Shown: positions 3,101-25,301 of the stretch, piece after piece
How positions within the stretch are numbered: position 1 is the first letter of the stretch
Layout of the letters: each line of letters starts with the position of its first letter
Origin: Candidatus Woesearchaeota archaeon
GTDB lineage: Archaea > Nanobdellota > Nanobdellia > Woesearchaeales > JACPIF01
Length of the DNA: 64,000 nucleotides
NCBI GenBank assembly: GCA_016188215.1
Contig: JACPIF010000003.1
Coordinates: 35,388 to 99,387 of the forward strand
Direction: 5' to 3'
The notes under the pieces: generated by a model
The model's input: the letters and a program-made list of their open reading frames with translations, nothing else
Database searches by the model: none
Told to the model about the DNA's origin: nothing
Program-made: the position numbers and the translations under genes

Positions 3101-4540
3101 ATCTGCTCTTTGCTCCCAATCAGTAGCTTGCCCTATTGGTGAGGTAGTTGATGGTCCATCTCCAGGTGGCGTTTCGGCAGATGCTGGAGGCACTAATTGT
3201 GGCAATTCAGGTGTTTTTGCCCCTTCTGTTTTAGCCCATTCCTCCTGCAATTTTCTTAGCGCTTCGTAGCTTTTTGGAGAACTTGCGATCTTATTTACTT
3301 GGTCTTGAGTTAGAACAGTATTTCCACCCCAGTCATCAATAACAAATTTGCCATTTTCAATCTTTACCTTGGAATCTCCAAGAAATCCAAAGGTTGCTTT
3401 GGCTCTTAAATCGCCATTTCCATCTACATAAACTAGGTTCCCCCCGCCGATGTCAGTTGGATTCTCTTTAGTGAATTGGTTCTGTGGTTGTGGAGAGGCA
3501 CTTGCATCGTTCGCTTTTGGTTGGTCATCTACATTAGAACCAGCGGATTGAGCGCGGGCAGTTTCTCCACTCTCAGCCGATTGTATGTCTGTAATCACAA
3601 TGTCAATACTTTGCTTGATGATAACTCTGCTTTTACCTGACAGAGGCAGTCCACTACTGTCGACATCAGACTTATAATAAAATTGAGGTACGCCTCCAAC
3701 ATCAACAACTACAGCTTCTCTTCCCGCTATAGTAATCCTATAGCTATTGATTATTGATGGATCATTTACGCCAAATGCGCTGCTTACTACATCATATGCA
3801 GTAGCACCAGGATCTTTATCATAATCATATGAAACTGTGTAGATGCCACCTTCTGTTCGTATAGCTTCATACTCAACGCCCCTAGATTGTGTAGAGCCTC
3901 TTCCAATATTGTACCCCTCCATAAAGTGATTAGTTCTTCCTATGCCCGCGCTTCCCTCGTGTAAGCTTCCTTTAAATATGTCATTCGCTGGATTTTTTGG
4001 ATCTGCCAGATAAGCCTCAACTTGCCTGGAGGTAGGCATATTTCCAGGTCCTCTATTCCATGCTACCTGCAATTGATTCGCTCTTATATGATCTTGTGCG
4101 GAGGAATCAAACCTAGAATTTCTCATGAGATCTTGTGTTATCCATCTTGCAGCAATTTCTAATGATCCCTCCAAAGTATTCACATCATACATGCCATTCG
4201 GATTATACCTTCTGTCATTATATCTGGCGCCAGTTAAACCAAAAATGCCAGTGCTACCTGCTTTCTGATCAGCAGGATGATTGTGGTTGACATTTGTCCC
4301 ATAAGTTGATTCAGATGCATACAGCCCTTCCAAGGTTCCCCTAGGTATTTGAGGATATTTCACATAAGTTGCATCAAATTTTGCTTTAACTTCAGGCGGT
4401 ATAAGAGGAGAAACTGCCGCAGCCCCGCTCACCTTATTTCCATAATCTCCGCTAAGCAGAACCCCGCTGACTAGCATGATAACTGCTATGACCGCCAGCA
4501 TCTTCTGGAATTCGCTCATTGCCTTCTTGCTCTTTCTCAT
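101..4540 (-). CDS. giant secreted protein (1479 aa) with an N-terminal lytic transglycosylase/lysozyme-like (SLT-type) domain; the rest is probably beta-rich repeat/adhesin-like
   Basis: Uninterrupted 4.4 kb ORF with an N-terminal hydrophobic signal/anchor (MLAVIAVIMLVSGVLL). 'YASESTYG...STGIFGLTGA...DVNTLEGSLEIAARWI' matches the SLT catalytic ES motif plus a GLMQ-like segment. The start lies 4 nt after the upstream gene's stop. Confidence 0.85.
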   Translation of the reverse strand: MRKSKKAMSEFQKMLAVIAVIMLVSGVLLSGDYGNKVSGAAAVSPLIPPEVKAKFDATYVKYPQIPRGTLEGLYASESTYGTNVNHNHPADQKAGSTGIFGLTGARYNDRRYNPNGMYDVNTLEGSLEIAARWITQDLMRNSRFDSSAQDHIRANQLQVAWNRGPGNMPTSRQVEAYLADPKNPANDIFKGSLHEGSAGIGRTNHFMEGYNIGRGSTQSRGVEYEAIRTEGGIYTVSYDYDKDPGATAYDVVSSAFGVNDPSIINSYRITIAGREAVVVDVGGVPQFYYKSDVDSSGLPLSGKSRVIIKQSIDIVITDIQSAESGETARAQSAGSNVDDQPKANDASASPQPQNQFTKENPTDIGGGNLVYVDGNGDLRAKATFGFLGDSKVKIENGKFVIDDWGGNTVLTQDQVNKIASSPKSYEALRKLQEEWAKTEGAKTPELPQLVPPASAETPPGDGPSTTSPIGQATDWEQRADEWYCINPQGCVDEGGFKAFTFGQKYPTEPSTKASTGGEPDRPGPFPERAAEERPPEAQNSNAKKGQQTPETPVLETSSQPVISIWYRSFWFRFNKDSQKWQMSRFFKLTWFDVSESSLFPELANANEEQGYNILRRYYPEAVAAAFPSGDAKPQDDQSGPKPGTAEAAVVRPGTPDSATTGTTSAIPPLTFVDSDSVERQLKKGDIVGRLEEHKDLKDPNKVNQVEVYYRADQNPTTGFWFLRPISSGGVPITDDAIYGQGGVPNPVWFNEAGNNVLTNTYHRFTGLILVSSSGATQVSKDAADPNNPLKVPIGFRDVQQRALSKAKEAEAAKIAALKLKPVEKMTVNEKEEYQIYQDKDKKMFIDIGGELFEVSGDIKREEGEITAVPYKGLDGNTYTALSTGIFYSEQRSEDTRLVRFVDEKGINYDVRIVTKEVQREQRGDDVITVADTGQTQQKKTIQEITFTDSSGNPLSASDLRYITEKLSGSDTTGIIAKIQNTLGTGNLVISPVQKEAPVSAGTPVPSAPPPALAPATINDYSGTISFDENKYNTYKIGDTLVYKNKDDGKLYYPISVYAEANPLLLPLNKQPNGFYESQSDLKYRDPKNGLEVSVKLFIANDGSTFTKTSTDIITYNTANGLSLKFYPDGSVTVVETVASQIPFGLNDPNLQERQLDIRYLDLLGTSLDRFSFWAVTGGTQMLNNLEKQGIKVQLTKEQLERIKPTVVQRFNWFGDMLREIQTAVKGYSFFSFLYSEPAPWVDDPTLLNILGGPTGELYGWTSQICADRATDIHELGAAFATSLSGAFAHVEGEKATIIDFNASTGQRKPNLFLYKISLKVNPGIESRGCNMNFKVMVSGPSGRRSLFVDSGDGSDFVFGVEAGGDPVDFAGNNMVFAQSQNSYDKVSIKFIELTGKVTPCLDGVSEGDELSSPLIANGPQQMNIGDPCGGAYTLFMPACWGGSGEEDGSSGTGKGVGGTTTSSPARRGGGRSGKPVVNI

Positions 4541-4544
4541 ATTC

Positions 4545-7500
4545 CTAACCCAGGCTCGGAGTCCCCTCGCTCACCTTCGGCTTATTTTCATCCTGCAGCG
4601 CTTCCTTGCATGCCGCATCAGTATCAATCTTCAGCTGCTCCCAGACAGGCTCGCATCTTGCAGGCCCAATGCCCAGGTCGCATAGCACATCAGTGACCCA
4701 GCTGATAGTATCTGCAGTATAGCATGCATAGCAAAATCCAGTAGGCGTTAGCTCATTCATACAATTTAATTTGTAGCACACTATGGAAAGGCCAGTGCTC
4801 ACCAGCTCAAGCGGATGAGAAAGCGCTTTGGTGACAGCCTGCCCTATGCTTGTTAAAGCCGCCGCGAACGGAATTATATTGAACACCTGCCCCCACACGT
4901 ACTTGCAATATGCATAATCCCTTTGTGCAGTGCATAAGTAAAGCGGCATGCCGTTCTTGGTCTCCTTAAGGCAGTTGATGTACCTGCAGTCTATGACCCT
5001 TGCTTTCTGCAGATTATAGATAACCCCAGGCAGGCATAAAAACGCAACGCTACCCACCAGGCTTTGCTTTGGATCAATATTGGCAACATAAAACTGAGCC
5101 CATGCTTTTGGATCTTTGGTATTTTTCCCACGCACAGAACTAGGCACATTTGCATTGCTTAAGACATCAAAATACGGATTTTTTGCCCACTCTGCATCAA
5201 TAAGTGAAGCATCACTCCCGCTCTTTGACTTGGTGCCTGCTTCTTTTCTTAGCCAGTCTCCCCAGAAGAACTGGCAGTTTATTGCTTTGCAGAACTGCGC
5301 TGTCCGCGCCTGGAATCCAGTCTTTGCAAGTTCAACTGAAGCAGTTGTGCTGACTCCAAGGGCCTTGGCAAGCGGGCAGCAGAACCCTCCGCCAAACCCT
5401 CCCAAGGCAATTCCCGCCTGGCAGCATGATTTTAATTTTTCAGTCCCGCCAAAGAGAATATTCCATACAGTAAAAAGATAGCTAGTGAACTTGCACACAG
5501 TCTGCGCAAAATTCAGTATCTTCTGGGCAGTCTCCATCCAGGTGGCCTGAACAATCCAGCTGTCCCTTACCCTTTCAATCTCATCATTGATCCTTGAGTC
5601 AATAGTTCCAAGGGGATTGTTGAAGTAATTGATGGTGAACGTGATATTCTCCGTCTCTTCAGGAGAAAGCTCCCTGCCATCAACCAGCGTCCTCACCTTT
5701 ACAGTGCAGCTCACCTTTACAGAATCCTGCGGAGGCAGCGCTCTCTCCATGGTGAACTTGAAGAATGTATTGTAGGGAAGCGTGCTGTCAACTTTTGGAG
5801 TTATAGGATTGAAGTTGAAAACCTCAGGCTTGTTGCCGGTAGTTGAGCTGAGCAGCGCAGCAGTATCATCAGAGCATCTGTCAAGCGTAACTGATACAGG
5901 CCATCTTGTTAGGGAGCTTTCAGCTGTTGCAAAAGATGAAGGTGTTCTTGTCAAATTGGTATTTGCATCAACACTTAAGGAAACCGGGAACCATACGAAA
6001 GGGTCGTATCTTGTAACGAGCTGCTTGTCAAGCGCAGATGGTGATGGGCTTCCAACCGCAGCTTTCCAGTAATTCACCGGCTTGTCGCTTATCCCCGTTA
6101 CAGTAATGGCCTTTTTGTACACCAAGGCATTGCCCGCAATGTCGCTGAAATTAAACACAAGATCTTTTGCGATGAACCCCTTTATATTCACCTCATCAGT
6201 GTTCCATGCGCAGCGCCAGTTCCCTGCCGCATTCCTGGTGCAGTCATCAGCCTCCAGTATGCTCGCATTCTTGATGAATCCAGATGCGTCTAGAAACGCC
6301 CTGATCCCGTTCTCTTCAGCTAATTCAGCAGTAATTGCCAGTGCGTTTCCTGTTAAAATCAATCCAGGCAGCACGCCCTGTGATCCTGCAACTGCGCTTA
6401 CATTTACAGAAAGCACCGCAGGAGCTATGGTATCAAGCACAAGCGCGTCTATCCCTGCCTGTGCAGCCAAGGGATTGCCTGCCTTATCCTTGGTCAGGGG
6501 ATTAATGCCTATATATTTCTGCCCTGAAGATCCCGAAATAGGTATTGAATTCCAGACGCAGGTAACCTGCCCTTCGCCCGTGCAGCTGTCCGCAGGAACC
6601 GCATTGCCCGCGCCCAATCCTGAGGCATCAAGCAGGACATCTTTTGCATCCAGTCCAGAGCCAGTCTCAACAATTATTGCCTCAATCCTTTTTTTATTTG
6701 CACTGATATAGTAAGTCCCGTTTGAATCAGAAGATTCAGTATCTATATCGCTTACCACAGGCCCTTGCGTATCAATGAAGATATTGTAAACAAGCGATTC
6801 GGATGCATTGTTGCCTGCCTTGTCTGCTGCTTTGAAAGAAAGCGTGAGGGCAGTGCTCCGTGTAGTGTCAGGAGGCGCGTTCAGGTCAAGCGTCAATCCA
6901 TTCCAGAAGCATCGTGTCCTGTTTTGGTTAAGTGCCGAGCAGCTGCTTCTGGCAACATCACCCACAGTAACGCGTGGTGTCAATGCATTGAGATTCGCCT
7001 TGACTGTGTTCAGGTCCAGGCCGATATCCTGCTCAATGATGTCTACGCTTACTGTTATGCCTGTCAGTGCCCTGTTTGACACACCTGTGACAGCTCCTGA
7101 AGAGCTTGTGATGCTTACATTCTCAAAATCAGGAGGAGCCGTATCCGGCCGCAGCACTTTATCAAGGGCTATTATTCTTGTCCGCCTATTGCCTGCAGTA
7201 TCAGAAGCCTGCGCTGTGACAGACCCGGAAAATGTGGCAGTGTTCACCCTTATCAAGGCAGTGTTCAATGAGCAGCGCATCATGGTTTCATTTACAGCAG
7301 CGCACGAAGGTGTTGTTGAGCCGCCCCGCACGTCAAGGCTGCTCAGGTCAATGGCGAATGAATTTGTGTCAAGGAGTTTGTCTGACACCTCAAAGCTCAT
7401 GCGCGCCAGGTATGTCTCCGGCACGAAAAAATCAACGAAGGAGCCGTCCTGCTTCCTGATGTCAAACTCTTTAAGCTCAATGCTCGGGCTTGAGAAGTCA

Positions 7501-10975: not shown

Positions 10976-12100
10976 ATGCCGGATCCACGATTAACTGCAT
11001 ATATTCAGGCGCAGCTGCAGAAGGGAATTCCTCTCCAGGCTGTCCGTGATGGGCTGATTAAATATGGCTACCAGCCGCAGCAGGTTGATGAGGCATTCGC
11101 AGCCTTGCACCAGACTGTGAAGCATGAGCACAGCATATCAGCCGGGACACTGCTCAGTATCGCTGCAGTCCTTCTTGGAATTATCCTAGTCACTTTTGCA
11201 TTTTTCTACATGAATCCCTTCACTCAGAAGCAGGAGCAGCTTTTGGACATTAATCTGGAAGAGATTATCACTGAAGCCAAACCAGGAGAAACAATAACAT
11301 TCCTTAAGGAAATCTCAAATCTCGGCTCAGACAAGAGGTATGATATTACAGTTAAGCATGAGCTTCTGGATACGAGCGGCAATTTGGCTTATTCAAAGGA
11401 GGAAACCCTGGCAGTAGAGACCAAAAGCTCAACCCAGACAAAATTAAAGCTTCCTGCAACTATCAACGCATCATGCCAAGAGCTTACTGACGCCTGTCCT
11501 GCTTCATGTGACGATGAAAATCCCTGCACTGCTGACAGCTGCAGTCCTGCTACAGGCTTCCAGTGCGCTCATGAGCTGATTGCATTCTGCTGCGGCAACA
11601 ATGAATGTGAGGCAGATGAGACTTCAGCGACTTGCGCTACAGACTGCCTGGCATCAGAGCCCGATATCTCAATATTTGACCGTCTTGAAGACATAAAAAG
11701 TCTTGCAGCTTCCAACCCTGACAAGGCAAGCTCCCTGTGCGCCGGCATTGAGAGCAATACATACAGGGATGACTGCTACGGAAATGTAGGGAAAGTAAGC
11801 CGCGATCTGCGATTCTGCAGCCTCGTCAAGAGCGACCGCACCAAAGACGACTGTGTTTCAGAAATTGCCAAATCAAGCGGCAGCAGCAGCTTATGCCAGC
11901 AGATAACCCTTGACACAAGGCGTGATGCCTGCTACATGAACTTTGTCCTTACCGGGGACTACAGCGTCTGCGAAAGCATAGTTGATAATTATCTCAAGGA
12001 TTCCTGCAATGCGTTGAAGCAGAACGCTGAATTTCAGGCACATAGCCAGGCACAGCCTCAGGCCGAGCAGGCGACTGAAGAAAGCCAAACTCCTAGCTAA
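10976..12100 (+). CDS. single-pass membrane protein with a Cys-rich extracellular domain (374 aa)
   Basis: TM helix (LLSIAAVLLGIILVTFAFF), then repeated C-x-x-C/CC motifs (CPASCDDENPCTADSC...FCCGNNECEAD). Confidence 0.75.
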   Translation: MPDPRLTAYIQAQLQKGIPLQAVRDGLIKYGYQPQQVDEAFAALHQTVKHEHSISAGTLLSIAAVLLGIILVTFAFFYMNPFTQKQEQLLDINLEEIITEAKPGETITFLKEISNLGSDKRYDITVKHELLDTSGNLAYSKEETLAVETKSSTQTKLKLPATINASCQELTDACPASCDDENPCTADSCSPATGFQCAHELIAFCCGNNECEADETSATCATDCLASEPDISIFDRLEDIKSLAASNPDKASSLCAGIESNTYRDDCYGNVGKVSRDLRFCSLVKSDRTKDDCVSEIAKSSGSSSLCQQITLDTRRDACYMNFVLTGDYSVCESIVDNYLKDSCNALKQNAEFQAHSQAQPQAEQATEESQTPS

Positions 12101-14631: not shown

Positions 14632-15519
14632 TTATCCATGGTGTGAGTCTTTGAATTTCCTATAAGCCTCATAATAGTAAAACTTGATCCACGCGGTTTC
14701 CATGATGAACAGCAGCAGCAGGATCAAAAGCGCGGCATCCAATGAAAGATAGATTGCAAGCTGCGCCGATATGCTGAAAAGCACTCCTGAAAACAGCACT
14801 ATGATTATCATAAAGAATGTGAAAAAGAATACAGCAGGCATGAACCTGTAAAACCTGAATATAGCTGTGTGCAGCGCATGCTTCGTATTGCCCCAGGCGC
14901 TTCTTGCTTCAGTATAGCTTGCATGCATGACCATCAGCAAATAAAGGAAAGCAATGACCCAGAGCTGTGCAGAAAGTACGTCAAGTGGGCTCCTCAGGAA
15001 ATAGAGGCAGCCAAAAAAGGTAAGTATAGCTGCCCAGAACCACATAAAGTTTATGGCAAGAAATCTCTTGAAGTAAAGCCTTGAAAAATCAGTTCTCTTG
15101 ATTTTTGCCCATGCATACCCCTTAATCAGCGACACTAAAAACACGGCAAAAGTAAACATTACGGCAATTGTCGCTACAGTCTTCCGCAAAAAGCTGCTGA
15201 GCGCAGCTCCCAAAAGATACACGCCATCGTATAATTCACTGATTACCTCAGGCGTAGCCTGAATCCTGGGGTCATTCATGAACTGGAATACCGTAATGGC
15301 CTTTGGCAGCGCTACATTTGCCTGCTCTGCATAGGAATTGAGCAGTTGCTTGAAAATTCCGGCAGTGAGCAGCAGCCCAATAATTAGCAGAATGTCCATG
15401 GCAAGCACAATGAAATACCGCCTGTCAAGGTCAAGGCTTCTCATGAATGCAGTGCTGTAGAACCATGCGATTAGATTGGTTCTTTCCTTCACCTTCCTGG
15501 CTTTCTTATGCGCTGCCAT
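14632..15519 (-). CDS. polytopic membrane protein (295 aa)
   Basis: Six to eight hydrophobic helices; 1-nt overlap with the downstream ORF. Confidence 0.75.
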   Translation of the reverse strand: MAAHKKARKVKERTNLIAWFYSTAFMRSLDLDRRYFIVLAMDILLIIGLLLTAGIFKQLLNSYAEQANVALPKAITVFQFMNDPRIQATPEVISELYDGVYLLGAALSSFLRKTVATIAVMFTFAVFLVSLIKGYAWAKIKRTDFSRLYFKRFLAINFMWFWAAILTFFGCLYFLRSPLDVLSAQLWVIAFLYLLMVMHASYTEARSAWGNTKHALHTAIFRFYRFMPAVFFFTFFMIIIVLFSGVLFSISAQLAIYLSLDAALLILLLLFIMETAWIKFYYYEAYRKFKDSHHG

Positions 15520-16016
15520 TATCCTTCCACCTTGATCACAGGCACTTTAACATATTGGTTGTTTGAATATGTCAGCACGACATGCGTCAGCTGCTCAGTG
15601 ATGTTAAAGTATTTCGCGTAAAATCCGACTCCTGGATTACTATTAGTTGCGGTTGACGCCTCCTGCACGCTCCACGGGCTTATCGGGCTGTTGCCAACAA
15701 GCTCAACCTTGTAGGAGACTGAGCTGGCAGCAGGCTCTATATACCATGTGACTTTGAAAAGCGAGGTATTATCCGGCTGCTCTATCTTCTCACCCTGCAG
15801 TGTCAATGTCAGGACAGAAAGGTAGATTGGCTGCGACAGCTGTGCGCCTGCCTGTGCAGCCTCTGTCCCGCCCCATTTGCTGCAGATGTCCAGCTCCCAC
15901 TGCTCAACCTTATACCAATCATCCATCTTGGGGTTGAACTGCTTGGATTTCGCATAGGCTATAGTTGTAAGCAGAAGGAAAGACAAAAGCAGCACAATAA
16001 TTCTCTTATCAGTCAT
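15519..16016 (-). CDS. small secreted protein (165 aa)
   Basis: N-terminal signal peptide (IIVLLLSFLLLTTIAYA), then a hydrophilic body. Confidence 0.7.
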   Translation of the reverse strand: MTDKRIIVLLLSFLLLTTIAYAKSKQFNPKMDDWYKVEQWELDICSKWGGTEAAQAGAQLSQPIYLSVLTLTLQGEKIEQPDNTSLFKVTWYIEPAASSVSYKVELVGNSPISPWSVQEASTATNSNPGVGFYAKYFNITEQLTHVVLTYSNNQYVKVPVIKVEG

Positions 16017-16044
16017 TAATAATCCCTCCTTTGCATTCCATAAG

Positions 16045-16055
16045 ATTTATAAATA
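16045..16055 (+). promoter_or_regulatory. TATA box for micro-ORF 1
   Basis: 'atttataaata' centred about 26 bp upstream of the 16076 ATG. Confidence 0.45.
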
Positions 16056-16075
16056 ATAAAGTATAGACGATTATT

Positions 16076-16186
16076 ATGGCAAAGAAGTATAAAACTAAGG
16101 AAGAACTGATAGCAGCTATAAATGAAGCTATGAAGGATCCAGAATTTAGGAAAGGTATCCGACAGTTTATTAAGGCTACTACTTGA
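16076..16186 (+). CDS. micro-protein 1 (36 aa, MAKKYKTKEELIAAINEAMKDPEFRKGIRQFIKATT)
   Basis: A tandem paralog of 16254..16361 sharing the 'KDP[ED]FRK..[RA][QR]F[IV]K.TT' motif, with its own TATA box; the minus-strand ORF covering this region has low-complexity, un-protein-like sequence. Confidence 0.5.
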   Translation: MAKKYKTKEELIAAINEAMKDPEFRKGIRQFIKATT

Positions 16187-16221
16187 TATTATGTTCAAAC
16201 CTTCTTTTTCTATTGCGAAAT

Positions 16222-16231
16222 CTTTATATAT
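16222..16231 (+). promoter_or_regulatory. TATA box for micro-ORF 2
   Basis: 'ctttatatat' centred about 27 bp upstream of the 16254 ATG. Confidence 0.45.
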
Positions 16232-16253
16232 CTCTTCTTCTTCAATAGAGATT

Positions 16254-16361
16254 ATGAAATCAAAAAAATATGAAGATTTTTGGGAAAAACTGGAAGAATG
16301 GCAAAAAGATCCAGATTTTAGGAAAGCAGTAGCAAGATTTGTCAAGATAACAACCTCCTGA
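16254..16361 (+). CDS. micro-protein 2 (35 aa, MKSKKYEDFWEKLEEWQKDPDFRKAVARFVKITTS)
   Basis: Paralog of micro-ORF 1 with its own TATA box; its 3' end overlaps the 3' end of the convergent PIN gene by about 20 nt. Confidence 0.5.
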   Translation: MKSKKYEDFWEKLEEWQKDPDFRKAVARFVKITTS

Positions 16362-16878
16362 TTTCTTTTATGAATTTTGTATAGTCCTCAAAATACGGCG
16401 TTCTGATATTATTTAATCCGTTTACTATTTTGTAACTCTTAACTGCTGTTTCGCTTGCCATTGTTTTGTTGTCTTCTGAATAAATTATATCAAAATTCTT
16501 CATGCTCGATCCTGCCACTATAATAAAATCATTCAGAATTTCATGCTCCTTTGAAGAACCTCCTAATTCTTTATATACTTTATAATACTTTCCTGCGAGA
16601 TCTTTCATCTCTTGGTCTATGACAAGTGTATGATTCCCCACCAGCAAATCATAGAAATTAAGTACCGTTAATCTTACCTTTTCATTACCAATAATAGTTT
16701 TGCGTGAAGTCGCTCTTAATTCCTTTCTTATGACGTCAAATCCGTAAATTATAAAATGGCCTTTCAATACGCCTCTATCAACAGCTTCACGTATAACTTT
16801 CTGATGAAATTCCTCTAATATCCTGCCATAAATATTAGTATCAAGAATTACTCTTTTTGCAGGGCTATCTTTACGCAT
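16342..16878 (-). CDS. PIN-domain (VapC-like) protein (178 aa)
   Basis: N-terminal 'RVILDTNIY' carrying the conserved acidic residue of PIN domains, plus a later 'IIYSEDNK'. The gene is AT-rich relative to its neighbours. Its start codon overlaps the stop of the 1765-aa gene by 1 nt (TGATG). Confidence 0.6.
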   Translation of the reverse strand: MRKDSPAKRVILDTNIYGRILEEFHQKVIREAVDRGVLKGHFIIYGFDVIRKELRATSRKTIIGNEKVRLTVLNFYDLLVGNHTLVIDQEMKDLAGKYYKVYKELGGSSKEHEILNDFIIVAGSSMKNFDIIYSEDNKTMASETAVKSYKIVNGLNNIRTPYFEDYTKFIKEIRRLLS

Positions 16879-19800
16879 CAGTAATCCCTCCTTTCATCAG
16901 GGTACCCTGCGGTTGCGCAGTAATCCGGACCGTTTAACGCGCTTTTATCATAGCTGAATCCGCCATATAATGTGTCCCAGACACCTTTCAGCTCAAGCAA
17001 TGTTTGTACGGTCCCTACAATTCCGCATGCTGTAGGATATTTGCCTGCAGTTGCTATAAATGTTGTAAATGCCTGCTGGCAGTATTCAGGGCCGCCTGTA
17101 ATCGAATATGCTCCGCAAACACTTTGATATATCAATCCCCCAATCAAGAAAGGAAGCTTTTGCGAAATAGCATTAATCAGGTTGCCCATTGCATTCTCAT
17201 TGTCAAATAACTTGAATTGAGCTCCATCAACATAAAGGCATTGCCTTTCTTTATATGCCAAATCACATGCTGTAGTTGTAACTCCAGAGGTTAATTCATG
17301 CTGCAGGCAGTTTCTATACATACATTTTATCTGCCGCTCCTTCTTGAGATTGTAGATTATTGGCGGATAGCACATGCACGCATATGCATAAGGCTTGCTC
17401 TTGTACGGATTCCATATCCATGTTGCACTTTTAAGTTCTTCAGGGGCCTCTGTCTCTACAATAGAATTTCTCCAGCCGTTATTGTCTGGCCTGTAAGTTA
17501 CTTGAGGCGGTTTATAATCTCCAACACCAGGTACATCAGGGGGACCTGCTGCTTGGCCTGTGAAAGGGAAGCCTGAGTAGATGACAGTTGATATAGGTCC
17601 AGAAGGTGGTGGAGGTGTAGAAGGTGGTGGAGTTATAGTTGGCTGATCTCCAGTTACGAATAGATTTAGCGCTAAGGGATTTTCAGCGAGTTTCCAATTA
17701 ATTCCATTCGAAGTCTCGTACCAATACCATACACCATCAATTTGTCTGCTGGAATATACAAAAAATCCTCTCTCATCTCCTGCATTTGGGATATATATCC
17801 GCTCTCCAGAAAGCACATCAACAGCATAATAGCTTCCCCGTTCATCCCAAGCTTGGTATGCTAAATTTTTATCTACGTTCGTAGCTATATCATCAATAAT
17901 ACCCTGAGCAAATCTAGGATACCCTAAATCAACATTTTGTGGAGGAGAAGGACTAAATGTTTCTATAAGATTATATGGATCAGTATCTCCAAGAGGGGGG
18001 GTGGGTGGAGTGGTGAGTATATTAGTGGATGATTGGGAAATATCTCTTAATCTCGCAGGAAGTTGATCTTCAGGTATACTCCTTATCTCATCTCCACGAG
18101 CTACTTGCCATTCCAATCCTCTATCCGTCTGTGATGCAACATAAACTAAACTTCTATCATCACTTGGTATTAGAATTAATTTGTTATCCTCGGTAATTGC
18201 CATAAAATTATCATTTTTGTCAACTCGATGATATGTCGCTATGCTTTTATAATAATCAACTAGATCAGCTTGAGGTGATGTTGCACCGTCATAATTTGGG
18301 CTCCACCCACTCCCACTAAAATCTGTTTGTTCCACACCTCCTTCTTGATAACTTGCAGGAACTACTAAACCTCCCTCTTTTGGAGTTTTATATCCTTGAT
18401 ATGCCTCTTGTTCCTCTTTAGTCGCTGGCGCAATACTTTTGCTCCATCCAGACCCATCTTCATTTTCAGATAGCCTTCCAGTAAAAGGTTTTTGTTCTTG
18501 AGACTCAGGTGGTGGTGGACTTGATCCTCCTACACTAGAAGGACTTTGAGTAACAGGCGCAGAAGGAGTACCAATTGGAGAATATCTATAAGTTTCATAA
18601 GATTTTAGAATAATAGATTCTCCTCCTCCAACATCAACTGTATATACCCATACACCTGGTTTTTCACCCACTTTCTCGCCAGCAGTAACTTGGACAATAT
18701 TGCCTTCTCTACCATCAACAATAATTTTATCACCCTTTCCTACTGCAGTTTTGGTGCTAGTGTCTGTAACATCTGCTCCAGTCCCAGTTCCAAAGAAATT
18801 AGCCACAGTCCCCTTAATATGCTTTCCAAATGCCTTATCCAGAGCATCAAATCCGACATCTATCCAATCTTCCCAGTCGCACAATGCGCATTGGTAGCTT
18901 ATTGCGCAGCCCATCTTGTTTATCATGCCTATTAGGCTTAGCGCTGCAGCTGGGTTGCCGCTAACAGCACTTGAAGCTGCGCCTGAAACCCCCCCTGCTG
19001 CCGCAGTCGCAGCACCTCCCAAGCCAAACGGCCCGGGCGGCCATATGAATTTGTCAACAAATGAGTGGAACCATCCGAATTTAGTGCAGATAGACATGAA
19101 ACTAGTTTTTGCACTGTTCCATACTGCTGTCCCTGCAACAATTGTAGAGGCAGATGTTGCCAAGGCTGGTGAAAATCCCGCTGTAGTTGGACATGCAGCA
19201 GTTGATGCGGATGCCGTAGCAAATATCCCGGCAACAGTATCAGCGGATTTTGCTGCAAGAATATTGCCTGTTGAGGATAAAGCATTATACTCTGCAACAC
19301 CTTCTGTAACCCCTATCTCTAATGCAATTAGTTTAGCCTTTACTGGACAACATACAGTAGATGTTACAACAGCAGAACAGCCTGCAGAAGCAGCAGGAAT
19401 TGCAGCTGTAAAAGCAGCGGTACCAGCTGACATTGAAGTTGATATTTGGCTTATTGCATTTATCTCTTGAAAATTCGTAACAGTATACCACAGCAATTTC
19501 ACATTCTGCAACACGCTATTCAACTGCCCCATTAATTTGGAAATAGTGCACCACGTTGCTAATATGCTTGCAAACTTTTCTTTTGCTTCTATCTCTTTTC
19601 CTAAGTCTTTTATATCTTTGTCAATCTCATTTAATTTAGCCTGCACGTTTGCATCTGCAACACCAGTAGGTGCATCATAAAGCGGGATTTTCAGCTCTAT
19701 GGCCTCAACTTCAGGCTTTGAAAAGATAGTGCTGCCTCTTTTCACTGTCATGCTGAGCTTGCATGGTATAGTTATCTCATTCGCAGCAACATTGCCTACT

Positions 19801-22175
19801 TCAGAAGTCAGCCTGAAAGCAATAACAGGATCAATAGTTCCTTCATTTATGATATAGGTGCTTCCTCTCTCTGCATACTCTGAACTGCAATCTGCGCTCA
19901 TAGAGAGTATCTGCACGTTCTCTTTTGTCCCTAAAGAAACCTTGCCGAACATGCTGAATGGAACTTGTGATGTAGCTTTTCTTGGCACTTTGGTAGGTGT
20001 TATCCCGGTGCTCTTAACTGTAAGAAAATCAGGAGTCCTGCGCGCATCAGGCTCAGCTATTTCAAGCAACAGAACTCTCTCAGCAGTATTCCCTGCAAAG
20101 TCCTCAACTAATATCTTCACTTTATCTGACTGCGCTTTGGCAGGCAAGCCTGTTAATTCAAGATGGCATGTCACGTCATTCCTGTTTGTTTCATTATCAG
20201 TAGCGCTCCTGCATTCCATTCCCAGCTCAGTTGCATTAACAATGCTTCCCGGATACAGCACTGCTCTCTTGACACCTGAAACAGTATCTGCAGCTTTCAC
20301 TTCAAAGAAAATCTTGTCTGTATATGCGGGATACTGGGGTATTTGCTTTATTTCATTGATTGCAGGATTGCCCTCATCTATCTCAAGCTCAAGGGACAGT
20401 GAACTTGCAGCCTTGTTCCCAACCTTGTCCTGAATCAGCAAACTGCTGCTTATGGCCCTTCTGTCAGTGAAGCTGCTTCCAAGCTTATTCCAGTAGCACG
20501 TAAATATATCGCCCTGCTGCACACATCTGTCTGCAGCCAGATTTGGATTTCCGGTTATGGCAGATGCATCAAGCATAACATGGGACTCATCTAGCCCCAT
20601 GCCTATCTCCTGCAACACCAGCACGAATGTGCTCCCCTTTGGTGAGATATAGTTGACAGTCTCAGGCTCCTGCCCTTCCACATAAAGCTGCAGTGGAACA
20701 GGGGGCTCAGCATCAACAAAGACGCTATAAGGAAGATTCTCAGTTATATTATTGCCTGACTTGTCGCCTGCGGTGAACGCAAGGCTTTTGTGATTCAGCC
20801 CTTGGACATCAAGCCTTGCATTGACATTGTTCCAGGTGCACCTTGTGAGATTTTCCTTTAGAGGAGTGCAGTAATCCTTCGCAAGGTTTTTGTAGTTTGC
20901 AAAAGAGTTCAGTGCAGATAAGTCAGCCTTGACTGTTATTGTTTCAAGACCAGTCTCAGGCTCAAGTATGTCAACGCTGATGCTCACCTGATGCGTTCCC
21001 GGATTGGTGACATTAAACACTTTGCCTTGCTTCTGCACATTAAGGTTAGCTATCCTTGGCGCTTTCTTGTCAACAGGAAGGGATTTGACTAGGCTCAGCA
21101 CAGTTGTCTTCTTGTTGCCTGTTGAATCTTTTCCAGAGACAGTAATTATTCTGCTGAGTGAAGGCTCCTGAAGTGATAAGGGAATATTGCTCCATGCGCA
21201 GCGCTTCCTCCCATCTATATCAAAGCATCCATATTCAGCTGACGTAATGCCAAACTCGCTCAAGTCAGCCTCTAGGCTGCTTTCATCAAAATCAGGCTCC
21301 AGCACATCAACTGCAAATTCCACCAGTACCTGCATAGGCAGGAAATAGGCAATATCTTTATGGTTTGTATCCGTTACATTCACATAAGCCAGGATGAAGC
21401 TCAATCCCTGGAAATCAGTATCAAAATGAGGGTAGGCGCTGCCACCTTGGCCGAAAGCATCAAAACCAGTTACATTGAGCGTTACGCTGCTAACATTGGT
21501 TCCGGTATTGAAAACTGTTGCTGATTCTGTTATGGTTCCAGAGTAGCTGCATCCATTTCCAGGGGTTATCGTGTATGCTTTGGAGAAGCTGCCTGAGCTG
21601 ACTGTGATGGTATTCTTTATTCCGGAGCATTCAAAAGCTGAGCTGCTGCTGTAGGCAGTATCCTGAACAGAATAGGAGATGGCAACTGTATCCTGCGAAC
21701 TGTACTTGGCCTTGTCAACAGATGCTGTGACTGATGGAGCTGCGGTATCGCACAATACTGTTGCCTGCTCGTCATCAATAAAATTTCCGTTAGGATCATA
21801 CAGATTGACATCAAACGTAGTCTTTGGGCATATAAGGAACCCGGTCATGTTCCTCGCAAGCTTGCACTCATATCCATCACTTGAAGAGATGCAGGATTCA
21901 AACGCAAATCCTCCGTTGCTTGAGGTTCCTCCCAGCCTGACTTGCTCTGGTGCAATATTCTGGTCGCCATTTTTTGCAATGACTGAAAAGGTAAAGAAGT
22001 CAATATTGCTGCGGACATACCCCTTGATACCATCCCTTCCCTTTACCGTCAGGCTTGACAACCCCTGCGGCGCAGCCTGAAGGGAGGCGAGCGTAACCAG
22101 GAGCAGCAGCACTGCAACTATCCCTAGGCTTATACCTCTTCTAACATCCCTAGTGACCCCTTTTTTTTCCTTCAT
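16878..22175 (-). CDS. giant secreted surface protein (1765 aa), paralog of 4545..8273, with a Cys-rich C-terminal domain and an AT-rich inserted middle segment
   Basis: Signal peptide (LGIVAVLLLLVTLASLQA); N- and C-terminal paralogy to 4545..8273; Pro-rich linkers (PPPSTPPPPSGP). Confidence 0.9.
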   Translation of the reverse strand: MKEKKGVTRDVRRGISLGIVAVLLLLVTLASLQAAPQGLSSLTVKGRDGIKGYVRSNIDFFTFSVIAKNGDQNIAPEQVRLGGTSSNGGFAFESCISSSDGYECKLARNMTGFLICPKTTFDVNLYDPNGNFIDDEQATVLCDTAAPSVTASVDKAKYSSQDTVAISYSVQDTAYSSSSAFECSGIKNTITVSSGSFSKAYTITPGNGCSYSGTITESATVFNTGTNVSSVTLNVTGFDAFGQGGSAYPHFDTDFQGLSFILAYVNVTDTNHKDIAYFLPMQVLVEFAVDVLEPDFDESSLEADLSEFGITSAEYGCFDIDGRKRCAWSNIPLSLQEPSLSRIITVSGKDSTGNKKTTVLSLVKSLPVDKKAPRIANLNVQKQGKVFNVTNPGTHQVSISVDILEPETGLETITVKADLSALNSFANYKNLAKDYCTPLKENLTRCTWNNVNARLDVQGLNHKSLAFTAGDKSGNNITENLPYSVFVDAEPPVPLQLYVEGQEPETVNYISPKGSTFVLVLQEIGMGLDESHVMLDASAITGNPNLAADRCVQQGDIFTCYWNKLGSSFTDRRAISSSLLIQDKVGNKAASSLSLELEIDEGNPAINEIKQIPQYPAYTDKIFFEVKAADTVSGVKRAVLYPGSIVNATELGMECRSATDNETNRNDVTCHLELTGLPAKAQSDKVKILVEDFAGNTAERVLLLEIAEPDARRTPDFLTVKSTGITPTKVPRKATSQVPFSMFGKVSLGTKENVQILSMSADCSSEYAERGSTYIINEGTIDPVIAFRLTSEVGNVAANEITIPCKLSMTVKRGSTIFSKPEVEAIELKIPLYDAPTGVADANVQAKLNEIDKDIKDLGKEIEAKEKFASILATWCTISKLMGQLNSVLQNVKLLWYTVTNFQEINAISQISTSMSAGTAAFTAAIPAASAGCSAVVTSTVCCPVKAKLIALEIGVTEGVAEYNALSSTGNILAAKSADTVAGIFATASASTAACPTTAGFSPALATSASTIVAGTAVWNSAKTSFMSICTKFGWFHSFVDKFIWPPGPFGLGGAATAAAGGVSGAASSAVSGNPAAALSLIGMINKMGCAISYQCALCDWEDWIDVGFDALDKAFGKHIKGTVANFFGTGTGADVTDTSTKTAVGKGDKIIVDGREGNIVQVTAGEKVGEKPGVWVYTVDVGGGESIILKSYETYRYSPIGTPSAPVTQSPSSVGGSSPPPPESQEQKPFTGRLSENEDGSGWSKSIAPATKEEQEAYQGYKTPKEGGLVVPASYQEGGVEQTDFSGSGWSPNYDGATSPQADLVDYYKSIATYHRVDKNDNFMAITEDNKLILIPSDDRSLVYVASQTDRGLEWQVARGDEIRSIPEDQLPARLRDISQSSTNILTTPPTPPLGDTDPYNLIETFSPSPPQNVDLGYPRFAQGIIDDIATNVDKNLAYQAWDERGSYYAVDVLSGERIYIPNAGDERGFFVYSSRQIDGVWYWYETSNGINWKLAENPLALNLFVTGDQPTITPPPSTPPPPSGPISTVIYSGFPFTGQAAGPPDVPGVGDYKPPQVTYRPDNNGWRNSIVETEAPEELKSATWIWNPYKSKPYAYACMCYPPIIYNLKKERQIKCMYRNCLQHELTSGVTTTACDLAYKERQCLYVDGAQFKLFDNENAMGNLINAISQKLPFLIGGLIYQSVCGAYSITGGPEYCQQAFTTFIATAGKYPTACGIVGTVQTLLELKGVWDTLYGGFSYDKSALNGPDYCATAGYPDERRDY

Positions 22176-23183: not shown

Positions 23184-25301
23184 CTACTTGATGCGAGCAC
23201 CATCTCCTACCTTTTCTGCGCTCAGAAGCTCTTTATCTGTCTTCATGGCCTTTCCATTGTAGTAAATCCCGCCATCTTTCGTGTGCATCTGTACCTTTGT
23301 AAAATCTTCATAAGTTATCTGTCCTTTGTTGACCTTTGTAAAGCCCTCCATATAAACCTGGTCTCCCGGCTCTGATAATTTTGGTGCCACTACCCCTATT
23401 TCTTTTCCATCATCACCTGCAAGCAGCATGCCGTTGCTTTCCTTGCCGCGCAGCATCGCAGGCTTCAGGTTAGTGAGCACAACAATTTTCTTTCCGAGCA
23501 GCTCTTCCTTGCTGTAAAACTGCTTTATTCCCGCCACAATCTGCCTTTTCTCAGTTCCCAGGTCAATCTGCAGCACAATAAGCTTGTCTGCATTGGGGTG
23601 GTCTTCCACCGCAATTATTCTTGCAACCTTGATGTTGAGCGGGAACACTGCAGCCTTATCCTTCTCAGGCGCAGCAGCAGCTTCAACAATTTCAATCTTG
23701 GAGAACACTATTTTAGCCTGCCCCAAGGCATGCTCTTTTATGTCAAATGATGCATCCTTCCAACTGAGCTCTTTCAAATTCAGCTGCTTCTCAAGCTCAG
23801 CGCAGAATGCAGGCAATATCGGCTTTGAAATAATTGCAAGTATCTTCACGATATCAGCAGCAAACCCGATTACACCTGCTGCCTTCTCCCTATCAGCCTT
23901 GATAAGGTTCCATGGCTGGTTATCCTGCAGGTATTTGTTGCCGAGGCTTGATATGGCAAGGGTTTCCTTCAGCGCCTCGCCTATCTCCAGGTTATAGTAG
24001 TGCTCTTCTATGTTTTTTACTTTCTTGAGAATTTCTTTCTCCAGCTTCTTCTCAGGGGATACATGGGTTATCCTTGAATCCAGGTTATTGTTTGCAAAAC
24101 TCAATACCCTATAGCAGAAATTAGCGAGATTCGCAACCAATTCATTGTTGATTGAATCCTGGAAATTGCTGAAATTAAGGTCTATGTCAGACATGTTCCT
24201 GGCAAGAGTTTTCGCGTAGTAGAACCTAAGGTATTCAGGCCTGTACTTTGAGTGAAAGTCAGCGGCAGTAAAAAACGTGCCCCTGCTCTTGCTCATCTTC
24301 TCGCCATTGACTGTCAGGAATCCATGAACGGGGATGTTGAACGGCAGGTTGAATCCCGAGCCCATCAGCATTGCAGGCCAGAACAGGAAGTGGAAATAGA
24401 TAATATCCTTGCCGATGAAATGAATGATCCTTGATTTCCTATCAACCCAGTAATCCTCTGTCTTAAGCCCCCTTTTCTTACAGTAATGCTCAGTTGCTGC
24501 AATGTAGCCGATAGGAGCATCAAGCCACACATAATAGTATTTGTCTTCCTCTCCTGGAATCTTAAATCCAAAGTACGGTCCATCGCGTGAGATGCACCAG
24601 TCTTCCAGCCCATTCTTTATCCAGCTGTATACAAAATTCTTGATTTCAGGTTGCAGCTGCTTGTTTTTATCAAGCCATTTCCTCAGCCTTTCAGAGAAAG
24701 AGCTGAGCCTGAAGAAATAATGCTCTGCCTGCTTCCTTATCGGCGTGTTCCTGCAGATAACGCAGTATGGGTTGATTAGATCAGTGGTCTTGTAGGTTGC
24801 GCCGCACCGCTCGCACACATCTCCATACTGGTCAGGAGCGCCGCATTTCGGACACGTCCCTTTTACATACCTGTCCGGCAACGTCCTTTTATCATATTCG
24901 CAGTACGTTACCTCCATCTCTTTCATGTAGATATATCCTTTCTTGTTCAGCCGCTCAAAGATGAGGTCAGAATAGTATTTATTCTCGGGGCTATGCGTTG
25001 TGTAGTACTCGTCAAAGCTTACCAGGAAATTGGAAAAATCCCGGGTGTGCTCCTTATATACATCCTCAATCAGTTTTTCAGGAGTTATGCCCAGCTCTTT
25101 CGCTTTAATCTCAATAGGAGCGCCATGAGTGTCATCTGCGCAGATAAAGATAACATCTTCTCCTGCCAGTCTCAGGAATCTTACAAATATGTCTGTCTGT
25201 ATGTATTCTACTAAATGGCCACAGTGAATCGGCCCATTAGCGTATGGTAAGGCGCTCGTTACCAGAATCTTGCGTCTAGTCTTGGACTTTAGTTTGACCA
25301 C
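23184..25301 (-). CDS. metG: methionyl-tRNA synthetase with a C-terminal tRNA-binding (EMAP/Trbp111-like) domain
   Basis: 'PYANGPIHCGHL' (HIGH-type), zinc knuckle 'CPKCG...CERCG', 'KMSKS', and C-terminal 'ADKLIVLQIDLG...IVAGI'. Confidence 0.95.
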   Translation of the reverse strand: MVKLKSKTRRKILVTSALPYANGPIHCGHLVEYIQTDIFVRFLRLAGEDVIFICADDTHGAPIEIKAKELGITPEKLIEDVYKEHTRDFSNFLVSFDEYYTTHSPENKYYSDLIFERLNKKGYIYMKEMEVTYCEYDKRTLPDRYVKGTCPKCGAPDQYGDVCERCGATYKTTDLINPYCVICRNTPIRKQAEHYFFRLSSFSERLRKWLDKNKQLQPEIKNFVYSWIKNGLEDWCISRDGPYFGFKIPGEEDKYYYVWLDAPIGYIAATEHYCKKRGLKTEDYWVDRKSRIIHFIGKDIIYFHFLFWPAMLMGSGFNLPFNIPVHGFLTVNGEKMSKSRGTFFTAADFHSKYRPEYLRFYYAKTLARNMSDIDLNFSNFQDSINNELVANLANFCYRVLSFANNNLDSRITHVSPEKKLEKEILKKVKNIEEHYYNLEIGEALKETLAISSLGNKYLQDNQPWNLIKADREKAAGVIGFAADIVKILAIISKPILPAFCAELEKQLNLKELSWKDASFDIKEHALGQAKIVFSKIEIVEAAAAPEKDKAAVFPLNIKVARIIAVEDHPNADKLIVLQIDLGTEKRQIVAGIKQFYSKEELLGKKIVVLTNLKPAMLRGKESNGMLLAGDDGKEIGVVAPKLSEPGDQVYMEGFTKVNKGQITYEDFTKVQMHTKDGGIYYNGKAMKTDKELLSAEKVGDGARIK

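Follow-up and report, generated by a model that had tools for sequence, protein, structure and literature searches.

Why does an AT-rich, nuclease-like gene stand between a giant gene for a putative surface protein and its neighbour in the same operon, and what are the two very small genes that run against it? The question is raised by a locus in a 64-kb stretch of a Candidatus Woesearchaeota (DPANN) genome, hereafter the window. An open reading frame (ORF) of 178 aa, encoding a VapC-like PIN-domain protein, occupies 16342..16878 of the minus strand, between same-strand genes of 1765 and 165 aa, and two micro-ORFs of 36 and 35 aa, called m1 and m2, lie on the opposite strand. We read the locus as a compact mobile cassette at a stop/start junction that encodes a PIN toxin and a micro-protein antitoxin under separate promoters, and assign this reading a probability of roughly 0.6.

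The giant upstream gene (16878..22175, minus strand) encodes a putative surface protein of 1765 aa with an N-terminal hydrophobic segment and no Pfam domain. The downstream gene (15519..16016, minus strand) encodes 165 aa with a signal-peptide-like N-terminus. A first-pass annotation of this DNA had placed the start of the PIN ORF within the stop of the giant gene, and these coordinates hold: the PIN ATG (16878-16876) and the giant gene's TGA (16880-16878) have one base in common, forming TGATG on the minus strand. The same annotation proposed that the PIN gene was an insertion captured into the operon. Contigs reached via protein-database homologues of the 165-aa protein carry the empty site. 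In L051-L054 (79% identity) the last base of the giant gene is the first base of a 168-aa gene, and in L055-L057 (44% identity) the giant gene and the small gene overlap by 4 nt; neither PIN nor micro-ORF is present at the syntenic locus of L051-L057. Synteny continues onward, with homologues of the 859-aa gene in both sets and of the 295-aa gene in L051-L054. The junction is single-copy in L051 (ATAAGGAGGGATTACTGATGGATAAG; ATAAGGAGGGATTACTGATG-GATAAG) and doubled in the window, where GAAAGGAGGGATTACTGATG precedes PIN and CAAAGGAGGGATTATTAATG precedes the 165-aa gene.

The two copies of the junction are direct repeats that bracket the insert. The left, upstream copy (16876..16898, minus strand) comprises the last codons of the giant gene, a Shine-Dalgarno (SD)-like GGAGGG and the TGATG whose ATG starts the PIN ORF. 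Repeat comparison places the right, downstream copy at 16014..16036 (minus strand), with an SD-like GGAGGG and a TAATG containing the ATG of the 165-aa gene, the start region of which was duplicated by the insertion. A repeat search returned a 19-nt direct repeat, 89% identical with a spacing of 862 nt, that extends to 23 nt with one indel, and the 13-mer AAAGGAGGGATTA occurs exactly twice in the 64 kb, once at each cassette border. Between the repeats lies a cassette of 839 nt (16037..16875, minus strand; GC content about 0.32) consisting of an 18-nt filler, the PIN coding sequence and, on the opposite strand, the two micro-protein genes with their promoters. Because the PIN ORF begins on the duplicated host ATG and reads through the filler, the window protein has an atypical 7-residue N-terminal extension, MRKDSPA, ahead of the family-typical start (M)KRVILDT. 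At the level of sequence, then, insertion exactly at the stop/start junction between the giant gene and the next operon gene is confirmed, and the idea of capture into the operon stands on the empty sites in relatives, the flanking repeat and the duplicated start signals used by PIN.

Base composition had also been offered as a sign of insertion. The difference is as described, with a GC content of 0.32 for the cassette against 0.44 for the giant gene and 0.45 for the window, and values of 0.30-0.33 across approximately 15900-16650 within surroundings of 0.42-0.50. It proves little about recent insertion, however, since the PIN genes of 35 of 36 family loci are more AT-rich than their flanks, and as proof of such an event the argument fails. 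Eight contigs assembled from other runs of the same sequencing series cover the region, and two of them, checked base by base, match the window at 100% identity, which rules out an assembly artefact. All contigs encoding the identical 165-aa protein carry the cassette, none of them having an empty site, and a JGI metagenome scan for the 165-aa protein returned no relatives. The window cassette has no terminal inverted repeats, only scattered inverted repeats of 11-13 nt of which none is at the ends, and no recombinase or transposase lies within it, its content being PIN and the micro-ORFs only.

The 178-aa product is identical to NCBI protein HYV81_01330 and has 98 homologues of 160-180 aa in the protein database, the named ones belonging to Woesearchaeota, Aenigmarchaeota and Nanoarchaeota. 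An alignment of 40 homologues shows no variation at residues D13 and E53, and D117, S134 and D136 are conserved in at least 90%; mapped by motif order and not by structural superposition, the five are assigned to the PIN acidic quartet with its S/T-x-D motif. Profile searches gave a divided answer on the first-pass assignment to the PIN family. The window protein itself matched no Pfam family by hmmscan even at E<=1, and the PIN-family profile retrieved only noise from PDB sequences, but 20 of the 40 homologues matched PF01850 (best E 5.7e-7). An AlphaFold2 model built with the family alignment as input (pLDDT 95.2, pTM 0.89) was compared with the PDB by Foldseek, and the top 26 matches were all VapC, FitB or PIN proteins (probability 1.0, E 1.5e-4, target-normalised TM-score about 0.65-0.72). 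The best structures were Shigella VapC, FitB, Pyrococcus PIN proteins and the VapCs of Rickettsia, Salmonella and Mycobacterium. The PIN assignment is therefore retained: with a VapC/FitB-like fold, PF01850 in half of its homologues and the acidic quartet kept, the protein is classed, from model and alignment, as a VapC-type PIN domain of the PIN alpha/beta/alpha fold. Its gene appears to borrow its expression signals. No TATA box was found upstream of the window PIN gene; likewise 34 of 36 PIN genes of the family have none within 60 nt and carry an SD-like GGTGA or GGAGG instead, and most run into the stop of an ORF upstream, with an overlap of 4 nt in about half of the family PIN genes.

Both micro-protein genes are on the plus strand. 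The proximal gene, m2 (16254..16361; 35 aa, WQKDPDFRKAVARFVKITTS type), starts at an internal ATG of a 56-aa ORF, converges on the PIN gene and overlaps its 3' end by 20 nt. The distal gene, m1 (16076..16186; 36 aa, AMKDPEFRKGIRQFIKATT type; hidden Markov model (HMM) E 1.6e-19), is without a PIN partner of its own, and the cassette ends 39 nt beyond its ATG. Upstream of m2, at 16215..16230 on the plus strand, are a GCGAAA (16215-16220) resembling the transcription factor B recognition element (BRE) and a TATA box, TTTATATA (16223-16230); m1 has the TATA box TTTATAAA (16046..16053, plus strand). The octamers start 31 and 30 nt before the respective ATGs, so that their centres lie at about -26/-27, in agreement with the TATA-like boxes that the earlier reader had noticed 26-27 bp upstream. 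Throughout the family, 28 of 48 micro-ORFs have the canonical archaeal promoter (cGAAAgg-TTTAWATA) with its start 30-31 nt ahead of the ATG, and 42 of the 48 have it within 60 nt. This TATA-to-ATG spacing implies leaderless micro-ORF mRNAs, as far as promoter position can tell. A T5 run 19 nt past the m1 stop (16205..16209, plus strand) is likely an archaeal terminator, and TTTCTTTT, immediately past the m2 stop (16362..16369, plus strand) and antisense to K/E-rich C-terminal PIN codons, likely terminates the m2 transcript. A T-run begins 0-9 nt past the stop in 19 of 48 family members (19 of the 37 in which any run was found), which suggests that micro-ORF transcripts often end right past the stop. 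The m1 TATA box is in addition near-palindromic (16040-16060) and reads TTTATAAA on the minus strand too, 37 nt before the ATG of the 165-aa gene, where, speculatively, it might drive the displaced downstream genes.

The first-pass annotation called the two micro-ORFs tandem duplicates. They are indeed paralogous, their peptides being 42% identical over 33 aa (tblastn E 1e-5) with the common motif KDP(E/D)FRK...F(I/V)K.TT, but a local tandem duplication is rejected, the two being distinct old subtypes that recur in other genomes. The m2 type (WQKDPxFRK...TTS) accompanies the PIN subfamily of the window protein. The m1 type (AMKDPE[FI]RKGI.QF) pairs directly with a different PIN subfamily in L012, L013, L015 and L017, and in L025 it stands distal, as in the window. 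Tandem micro-protein pairs also occur as fused gene calls (P0099, P0123, P0223, P0224, P0284). A second PIN gene was looked for in the window and none was found, so m1 is an orphan, and it retains its own promoter and the T5 run after its stop. The DNA encoding KDP(E/D)FRK (16133-16154 and 16305-16326) is 91% identical over 22 nt between the two genes, compared with only 42% overall for the peptides, which may reflect local gene conversion or shared codon choice.

Selection on the peptides was assessed from the proportions of non-synonymous (pN) and synonymous (pS) differences. pN was lower than pS in 99.9% of 1128 micro-ORF pairs (medians 0.42 and 0.82), and mean pairwise identity at codon positions 1, 2 and 3 was 0.54, 0.65 and 0.36. 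At the Pro, Phe, Thr and Arg positions that hardly vary, as many as six synonymous codons are in use. The places at which the ORF starts and ends are kept across the family, and gene callers working on independent contigs call the micro-ORFs. Conservation as peptides, for which the first-pass annotation had proposed a comparison with relatives, is thus apparent both from tblastn and from pN against pS, and we judge both micro-ORFs to be real, promoter-bearing genes.

A different gene has been predicted over the same DNA, a minus-strand ORF of 109 aa (16016..16345) antisense to both micro-ORFs. If it were real, the micro-ORFs would be its shadows. The ORF is start/stop-coupled to both neighbours (TTGA at the PIN stop, TAATG at the 165-aa start) and preceded by AGGAGG, its translation has tblastn matches in relatives down to E 1e-8, and the wobble-matched antisense frame has a pN/pS of 0.55, close to the 0.49 of the sense frame. 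Given these nearly equal ratios, codon statistics alone do not fix the coding strand, which rests on stops, promoters and ORF ends. Of 48 relatives, only 25, 19 and 0 keep the respective antisense frames open across the micro-ORFs, and in the conserved core both otherwise open antisense frames have stops in 9-14 of 41 sequences. The 109-aa ORF runs across m1 and m2 in different relative frames, has no conserved start and is of low-complexity sequence. The duplicated junction accounts for its '...QRRDY*' end and its TAATG coupling, and the AGGAGG before it is made up of RR codons of PIN. The promoters at the micro-ORFs point away from its direction, and gene callers on independent contigs choose the micro-ORFs over it. 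With antisense frames interrupted in about half of the relatives and promoters facing the other way, we regard its reality as exceedingly improbable and agree with its original dismissal as spurious.

An AlphaFold2 model of the micro-protein (pLDDT 88) consists of two helices, residues 2-17 and 20-34, with the break at the conserved K-D-P, and gave no meaningful match in Foldseek. A HMMER scan of 1.84 billion representatives yielded 240 micro-protein clusters at E<=1e-3, almost all of 32-65 aa. The relatives found by indexed search are all labelled 'hypothetical protein' and none has a Pfam domain; in Pfam, NCBIfam and PADLOC, at most 4 of 40 micro-proteins matched any one family. DUF1641, GerD, STI1-DP and MazE were each considered and rejected, at no more than 4 of 40 members and below curated cut-offs. 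P0227 (430 aa, with four IMKDPEIRKEWQxFV repeats) was also set aside as a relative, its likeness to the micro-protein core being judged a chance helix-DP-helix similarity. The first-pass annotation had seen a faint resemblance to Nif11-type leader peptides, in which case the micro-ORFs would encode these or other leaders or precursors of ribosomally synthesised and post-translationally modified peptides. The likeness is a loose one of small size, a helical N-terminal part and an acidic 'DPE'-like motif. None of 40 members matches Nif11 in Pfam or NCBIfam (E<=0.1), there is no GG cleavage motif and no Cys-rich core peptide, and conservation is concentrated in the C-terminus. Pfam scans of immediate neighbours (genes between 101 and 26184) matched only methionyl-tRNA synthetase and a Dicty_CTDC repeat and gave no maturation enzyme; the constant partner of the micro-protein is the PIN gene. 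The leader-peptide idea is effectively refuted.

That partnership is not peculiar to the window. We took 42 DPANN loci with PIN homologues from contigs representing one genome per species, and searched them with tblastn and HMMs. A convergent ORF of about 35-40 aa lies within 150 nt of the PIN stop in 48-49 of 60 PIN HMM hits; among 35 full-length pairs the coding overlap ranges from -44 to +38 nt, with a mode of 20 nt. The unpaired PIN matches are mostly partial genes. Only four full-length PIN genes have no micro-ORF by HMM, one of which (L036) has a divergent convergent ORF by tblastn, and there are seven orphan micro-ORFs. That orphan micro-ORFs exist and PIN genes without a partner are rare is the asymmetry expected of an antitoxin. 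PIN and micro-protein distances co-vary (Mantel r 0.63, a value reached in 0 of 5000 permutations), which, as a comparison of sequences, argues that the two are inherited as a unit. Additional micro-ORF copies converge on additional PIN paralogues, with three modules in a row in L015 and four in L018. Own promoters and convergence on the PIN 3' end, both suggested in the first-pass annotation, are thus borne out in the window and in relatives. The convergent PIN/micro-protein layout is conserved across DPANN and is in no family database searched, and no account of the architecture was found in the searchable literature. On a 2.9-Mb contig labelled Candidatus Moanabacter sp. (L041, non-DPANN) there is a PIN homologue of 35% identity with no adjoining micro-ORF by HMM, which could represent horizontal transfer or a more distant PIN subfamily.

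The convergent geometry makes antisense interplay plausible, going by the layout of the genes, and control might act mainly at the RNA level: the micro-ORF transcript would serve as a cis-antisense RNA to the PIN mRNA 3' end, or its promoter would block PIN head-on, with the peptide secondary. The coding regions overlap in most modules (modal 20 nt) and a strong BRE/TATA promoter opposes a promoterless PIN gene. On the PIN strand no T-run occurs until 32-105 nt beyond the PIN stop, within the micro-ORF; PIN transcripts appear to end there, which implies that the transcripts overlap over a longer stretch than the coding regions do. Antisense control of type II toxins is documented for relBE2-asrelE2 (PMC9325379) and for archaeal type II loci (PMC6523106). 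The overlap varies in length, however, and some modules have none, whereas the peptide keeps its sequence, length, start and stop over a range of about 30-70% identity while synonymous codons turn over. m1 and other orphan micro-ORFs stay intact with their promoters although they overlap no PIN gene, and no Rfam family matched over 15500-17500 (E<=1). We consider primarily RNA-based control unlikely, and prefer the reading in which the peptide itself is the antitoxin.

The arrangement at the window insertion proved, unexpectedly, to be a rule of the whole family. A flanking repeat was defined as a stretch ending 0-44 nt before the PIN ATG and recurring beyond the micro-protein promoter, the control being the region at equal distance on the other side. 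Such repeats, of 40-182 nt and 76-100% identity, flank 17 of 34 modules compared with 4 of 29 controls; with tandem arrays left out, the figures are 13 of 29 and 1 of 23. Overall the flanking repeats of the family measure 18-182 nt and are copies of the host gene start region. The downstream copy is the true 5' end of the host gene, often one for a giant protein with a signal peptide, and the upstream copy is a shortened version of it, a mini-ORF that is translationally coupled to PIN. Thus the truncated and full host ORFs are of 61 aa and >944 aa in L031, and of 18 codons and >947 aa in L017. Examples of repeat pairs, taken from loci L006-L039 and L062, are 2805-2976 and 3643-3813 in L031, 2898-2954 and 3672-3728 in L014, 2941-2996 and 3663-3718 in L017, and 208-227 and 893-912 in L062. 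The last of these, with a PIN protein 66% identical to that of the window, has the window design, its repeat of 18-20 nt containing the giant gene stop and the next ATG. At its smallest, the cassette has a length of 628-666 nt, with one border within about 5 nt of the PIN ATG and the other at the BRE of the micro-protein promoter.

At some sites cassettes stand in arrays. L018 carries a four-module array (2048-5542) in which the PIN genes differ and the 182-nt spacers are 95% identical, and L015 a three-module array (2977-5689). In L016 (3663-4861) and L030 (3638-4836) a second copy of a small signal-peptide target ORF precedes a 335-342-aa gene that abuts or overlaps its stop. We take this gene, by eye, to encode a PD-(D/E)xK/YhcG (DUF1016)-like nuclease, and the target site seems to accept different cargo, as an integron array does. 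Cassette carriers were found neither among IMG/VR viral contigs nor among GenBank phages. The variable length of the duplications has two candidate explanations, Campbell-type integration of an excised circle with one repeat, or replicative template switching at ATGAAA microhomologies. In L060, a Woesearchaeota contig, the gene downstream of the cassette (3290-3763) starts MRKKIIIDLDVV and may be another, different PIN-like gene.

Putting these features together, it is possible, at somewhat less than even odds, that the PIN/micro-protein unit is a new non-autonomous DPANN mobile cassette of 628-666 nt. Such a cassette would land at or just past host start codons, mostly those of giant surface-protein genes, and duplicate 18-182 nt; its toxin gene would hijack host signals, the host gene would be pushed behind a head-on promoter, and repeated hits would build integron-like arrays with other cargo. 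Among known free-standing protein antitoxins of VapC toxins, the micro-protein would then be the smallest.

The company that the cassettes keep allows another explanation, that the pair is not a toxin-antitoxin (TA) module at all but a regulatory RNase and its cofactor in surface-protein operons, PIN processing or destabilising the long mRNAs and the micro-protein tuning it. PIN cassettes recur directly beside giant genes with signal peptides: the giant genes upstream of PIN in L015, L027 and L039 are homologous to that of the window, and those near the cassettes of L058 and L060 are weakly similar to its C-terminal part. PIN relies on host-gene transcription and translation signals, and the cassette is positioned between a host promoter and the gene that follows. 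Closely related versions of this operon, however, are wholly without the cassette. Up to four divergent modules stand in tandem (L018), upstream partners can be unrelated (a winged helix-turn-helix protein in L010, a 202-aa ORF in L021), and the other cassette type, with the 335-342-aa gene that we presume to be PD-(D/E)xK/YhcG-like, occupies these sites too. The copy number of the modules, their patchiness and their AT-richness are in keeping with a selfish or mobile unit. We doubt the regulatory explanation and hold it to be improbable, though far from absurd.

For the reading of a mobile toxin-antitoxin cassette, we envisage the following sequence of events. Insertion duplicated 19-23 nt of the junction, comprising the SD-like sequence, stop and ATG. 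Because the junction is duplicated and PIN is promoterless, PIN would share the transcript of the giant gene, and its translation would begin at the copy of the host start codon. The micro-protein genes would each be transcribed alone, from a BRE/TATA promoter, as leaderless mRNA. The two-helix micro-protein would act as a minimal protein antitoxin, binding PIN and, in the manner of the C-terminal tail of VapB, blocking the acidic active site, though without a DNA-binding domain. The balance of toxin and peptide would be set by the separate promoters, strong and constitutive for the peptide and borrowed for PIN, and a further level of control may come from head-on transcription and from pairing between the 3' ends where they overlap. 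The family has several paralogous modules per genome, tandem arrays and a patchy distribution; multiple paralogous copies and arrays are typical of TA modules. It is inheritance as a unit, orphan peptides, patchy and mobile multi-copy modules and the asymmetry of promoters that lead to the proposal of a minimal antitoxin. The PIN fold with its catalytic residues, the convergent pair with its promoters, the insertion and the repeats are observed, whereas toxicity, binding, neutralisation and any antisense effect are inferred. We consider the antitoxin role, one of those suggested in the first-pass annotation, the best reading of the micro-protein.

Several points weigh against this proposal. 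The peptide has no DNA-binding domain and the genes are not in one operon, so that two defining features of type II systems are absent. It matches no antitoxin family, the single MazE match having an E of 0.037 in 1 of 40 members. PIN domains also serve non-toxin roles, and recurrence beside giant surface-protein genes could point to a regulatory function and not to selfish addiction. The near-equality of antisense and sense pN/pS described above counts on the same side.

Of the known systems, VapBC (Shigella VapBC, 3tnd; FitAB, 2bsq; Pyrococcus VapC4, 5h4g) has in common with the present pair a VapC-like PIN fold with its acidic quartet, a very small, tightly linked partner gene, and paralogous copies that are patchy and located in variable or mobile DNA. 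The micro-protein is about the size of the C-terminal toxin-binding segment of VapB. Unlike VapB, the partner here is a 35-aa two-helix peptide with no match to an antitoxin family, and its gene, on the other strand, runs towards the toxin gene and shares a stretch of its 3' end. The peptide has its own leaderless BRE/TATA promoter, whereas the toxin gene is promoterless and borrows host signals. The literature describes archaeal type II TA loci as operons of two small genes (PMC6393860). The pair here, with convergent strands and separate promoters, does not form such an operon: the genes of the window and of 48-49 of the 60 family matches converge instead of being co-directional, and the peptide contains none of the antitoxin DNA-binding domains (AbrB, ribbon-helix-helix, helix-turn-helix or Phd/YefM).

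In the type I loci txpA/RatA and bsrG/SR4 of B. subtilis, a convergent antisense RNA with its own strong promoter overlaps the toxin gene at the 3' end. The toxins of these loci are small hydrophobic peptides, and their antitoxins are non-coding RNAs. The present modules likewise have a convergent toxin gene and counter-transcript, overlapping 3' ends and a strong counter-promoter, but here an enzyme of 178 aa is the candidate toxin, and the transcript opposing it codes for a conserved peptide; the small ORFs encode K/E-rich, hydrophilic products and not a small hydrophobic membrane toxin. A further parallel is relBE2-asrelE2 of M. tuberculosis, called 'type IIb', in which a type II toxin gene is opposed by a convergent complementary transcript (PMC9325379). 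That locus keeps RelB2 as its canonical, operon-encoded antitoxin, and its antisense RNA is non-coding and acts via RNase III (PMC9325379). Neither is it an architecture conserved family-wide, unlike the PIN/micro-protein pair.

As for the manner of insertion, the cassettes of integrons, including TA cassettes in chromosomal integrons, are compact, largely promoterless and externally expressed. Arrays of unrelated cassettes at one site (L015, L018, L016, L030) and the lack of a recombinase inside the cassette recall them. In contrast to integron cassettes, an inverted-repeat search, made with no dedicated attC model, found no attC-like inverted repeat at the ends of the window cassette, and the flanking repeats are copies of the host gene start with a variable length of 18-182 nt. 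Transposons and insertion sequences differ as well, since the repeats are not of fixed length and the cassette has neither terminal inverted repeats nor a transposase.

The toxin candidate belongs to the known PIN/VapC superfamily; the layout looks unusual for a TA module, and the behaviour of the cassette on insertion could be the part with more novelty. Screens for TA loci would be expected to miss a convergent pair with a 35-aa partner, because type II loci are treated as co-directional operon pairs. If the pair is a TA module, it adds a widespread, unannotated DPANN micro-protein family of at least 240 sequence clusters with a testable function, and would make VapC a toxin controllable by a minimal antitoxin with no DNA-binding domain, through separate promoters and head-on transcription. 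On the same premise, cassettes that sit between promoters and giant surface-protein genes, with target duplications of variable length, would offer a handle on gene movement and on a possible rewiring of surface-protein expression in genome-reduced, uncultivated archaea. As an annotation rule we offer a leaderless ORF with the motif KDPxF...F[IV]..T[TS] that converges on a PIN gene.

In the surroundings of the locus, Pfam, NCBIfam and PADLOC gave nothing significant for the window PIN ORF, the micro-ORFs, the 109-aa ORF or the neighbours, and no tRNA gene was found in the window. Large minus-strand ORFs without Pfam domains (1479, 1260, 720, 859, 295, 165, 1765 and 113 aa) follow one another from 101 to 22517, a run that is likely a variable surface-protein island and whose end adjoins a methionyl-tRNA synthetase gene (23184-25301). 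Its sole plus-strand gene is a 374-aa ORF (10976-12100) with a Dictyostelium-type Cys-rich repeat (PF00526, E 7e-9).

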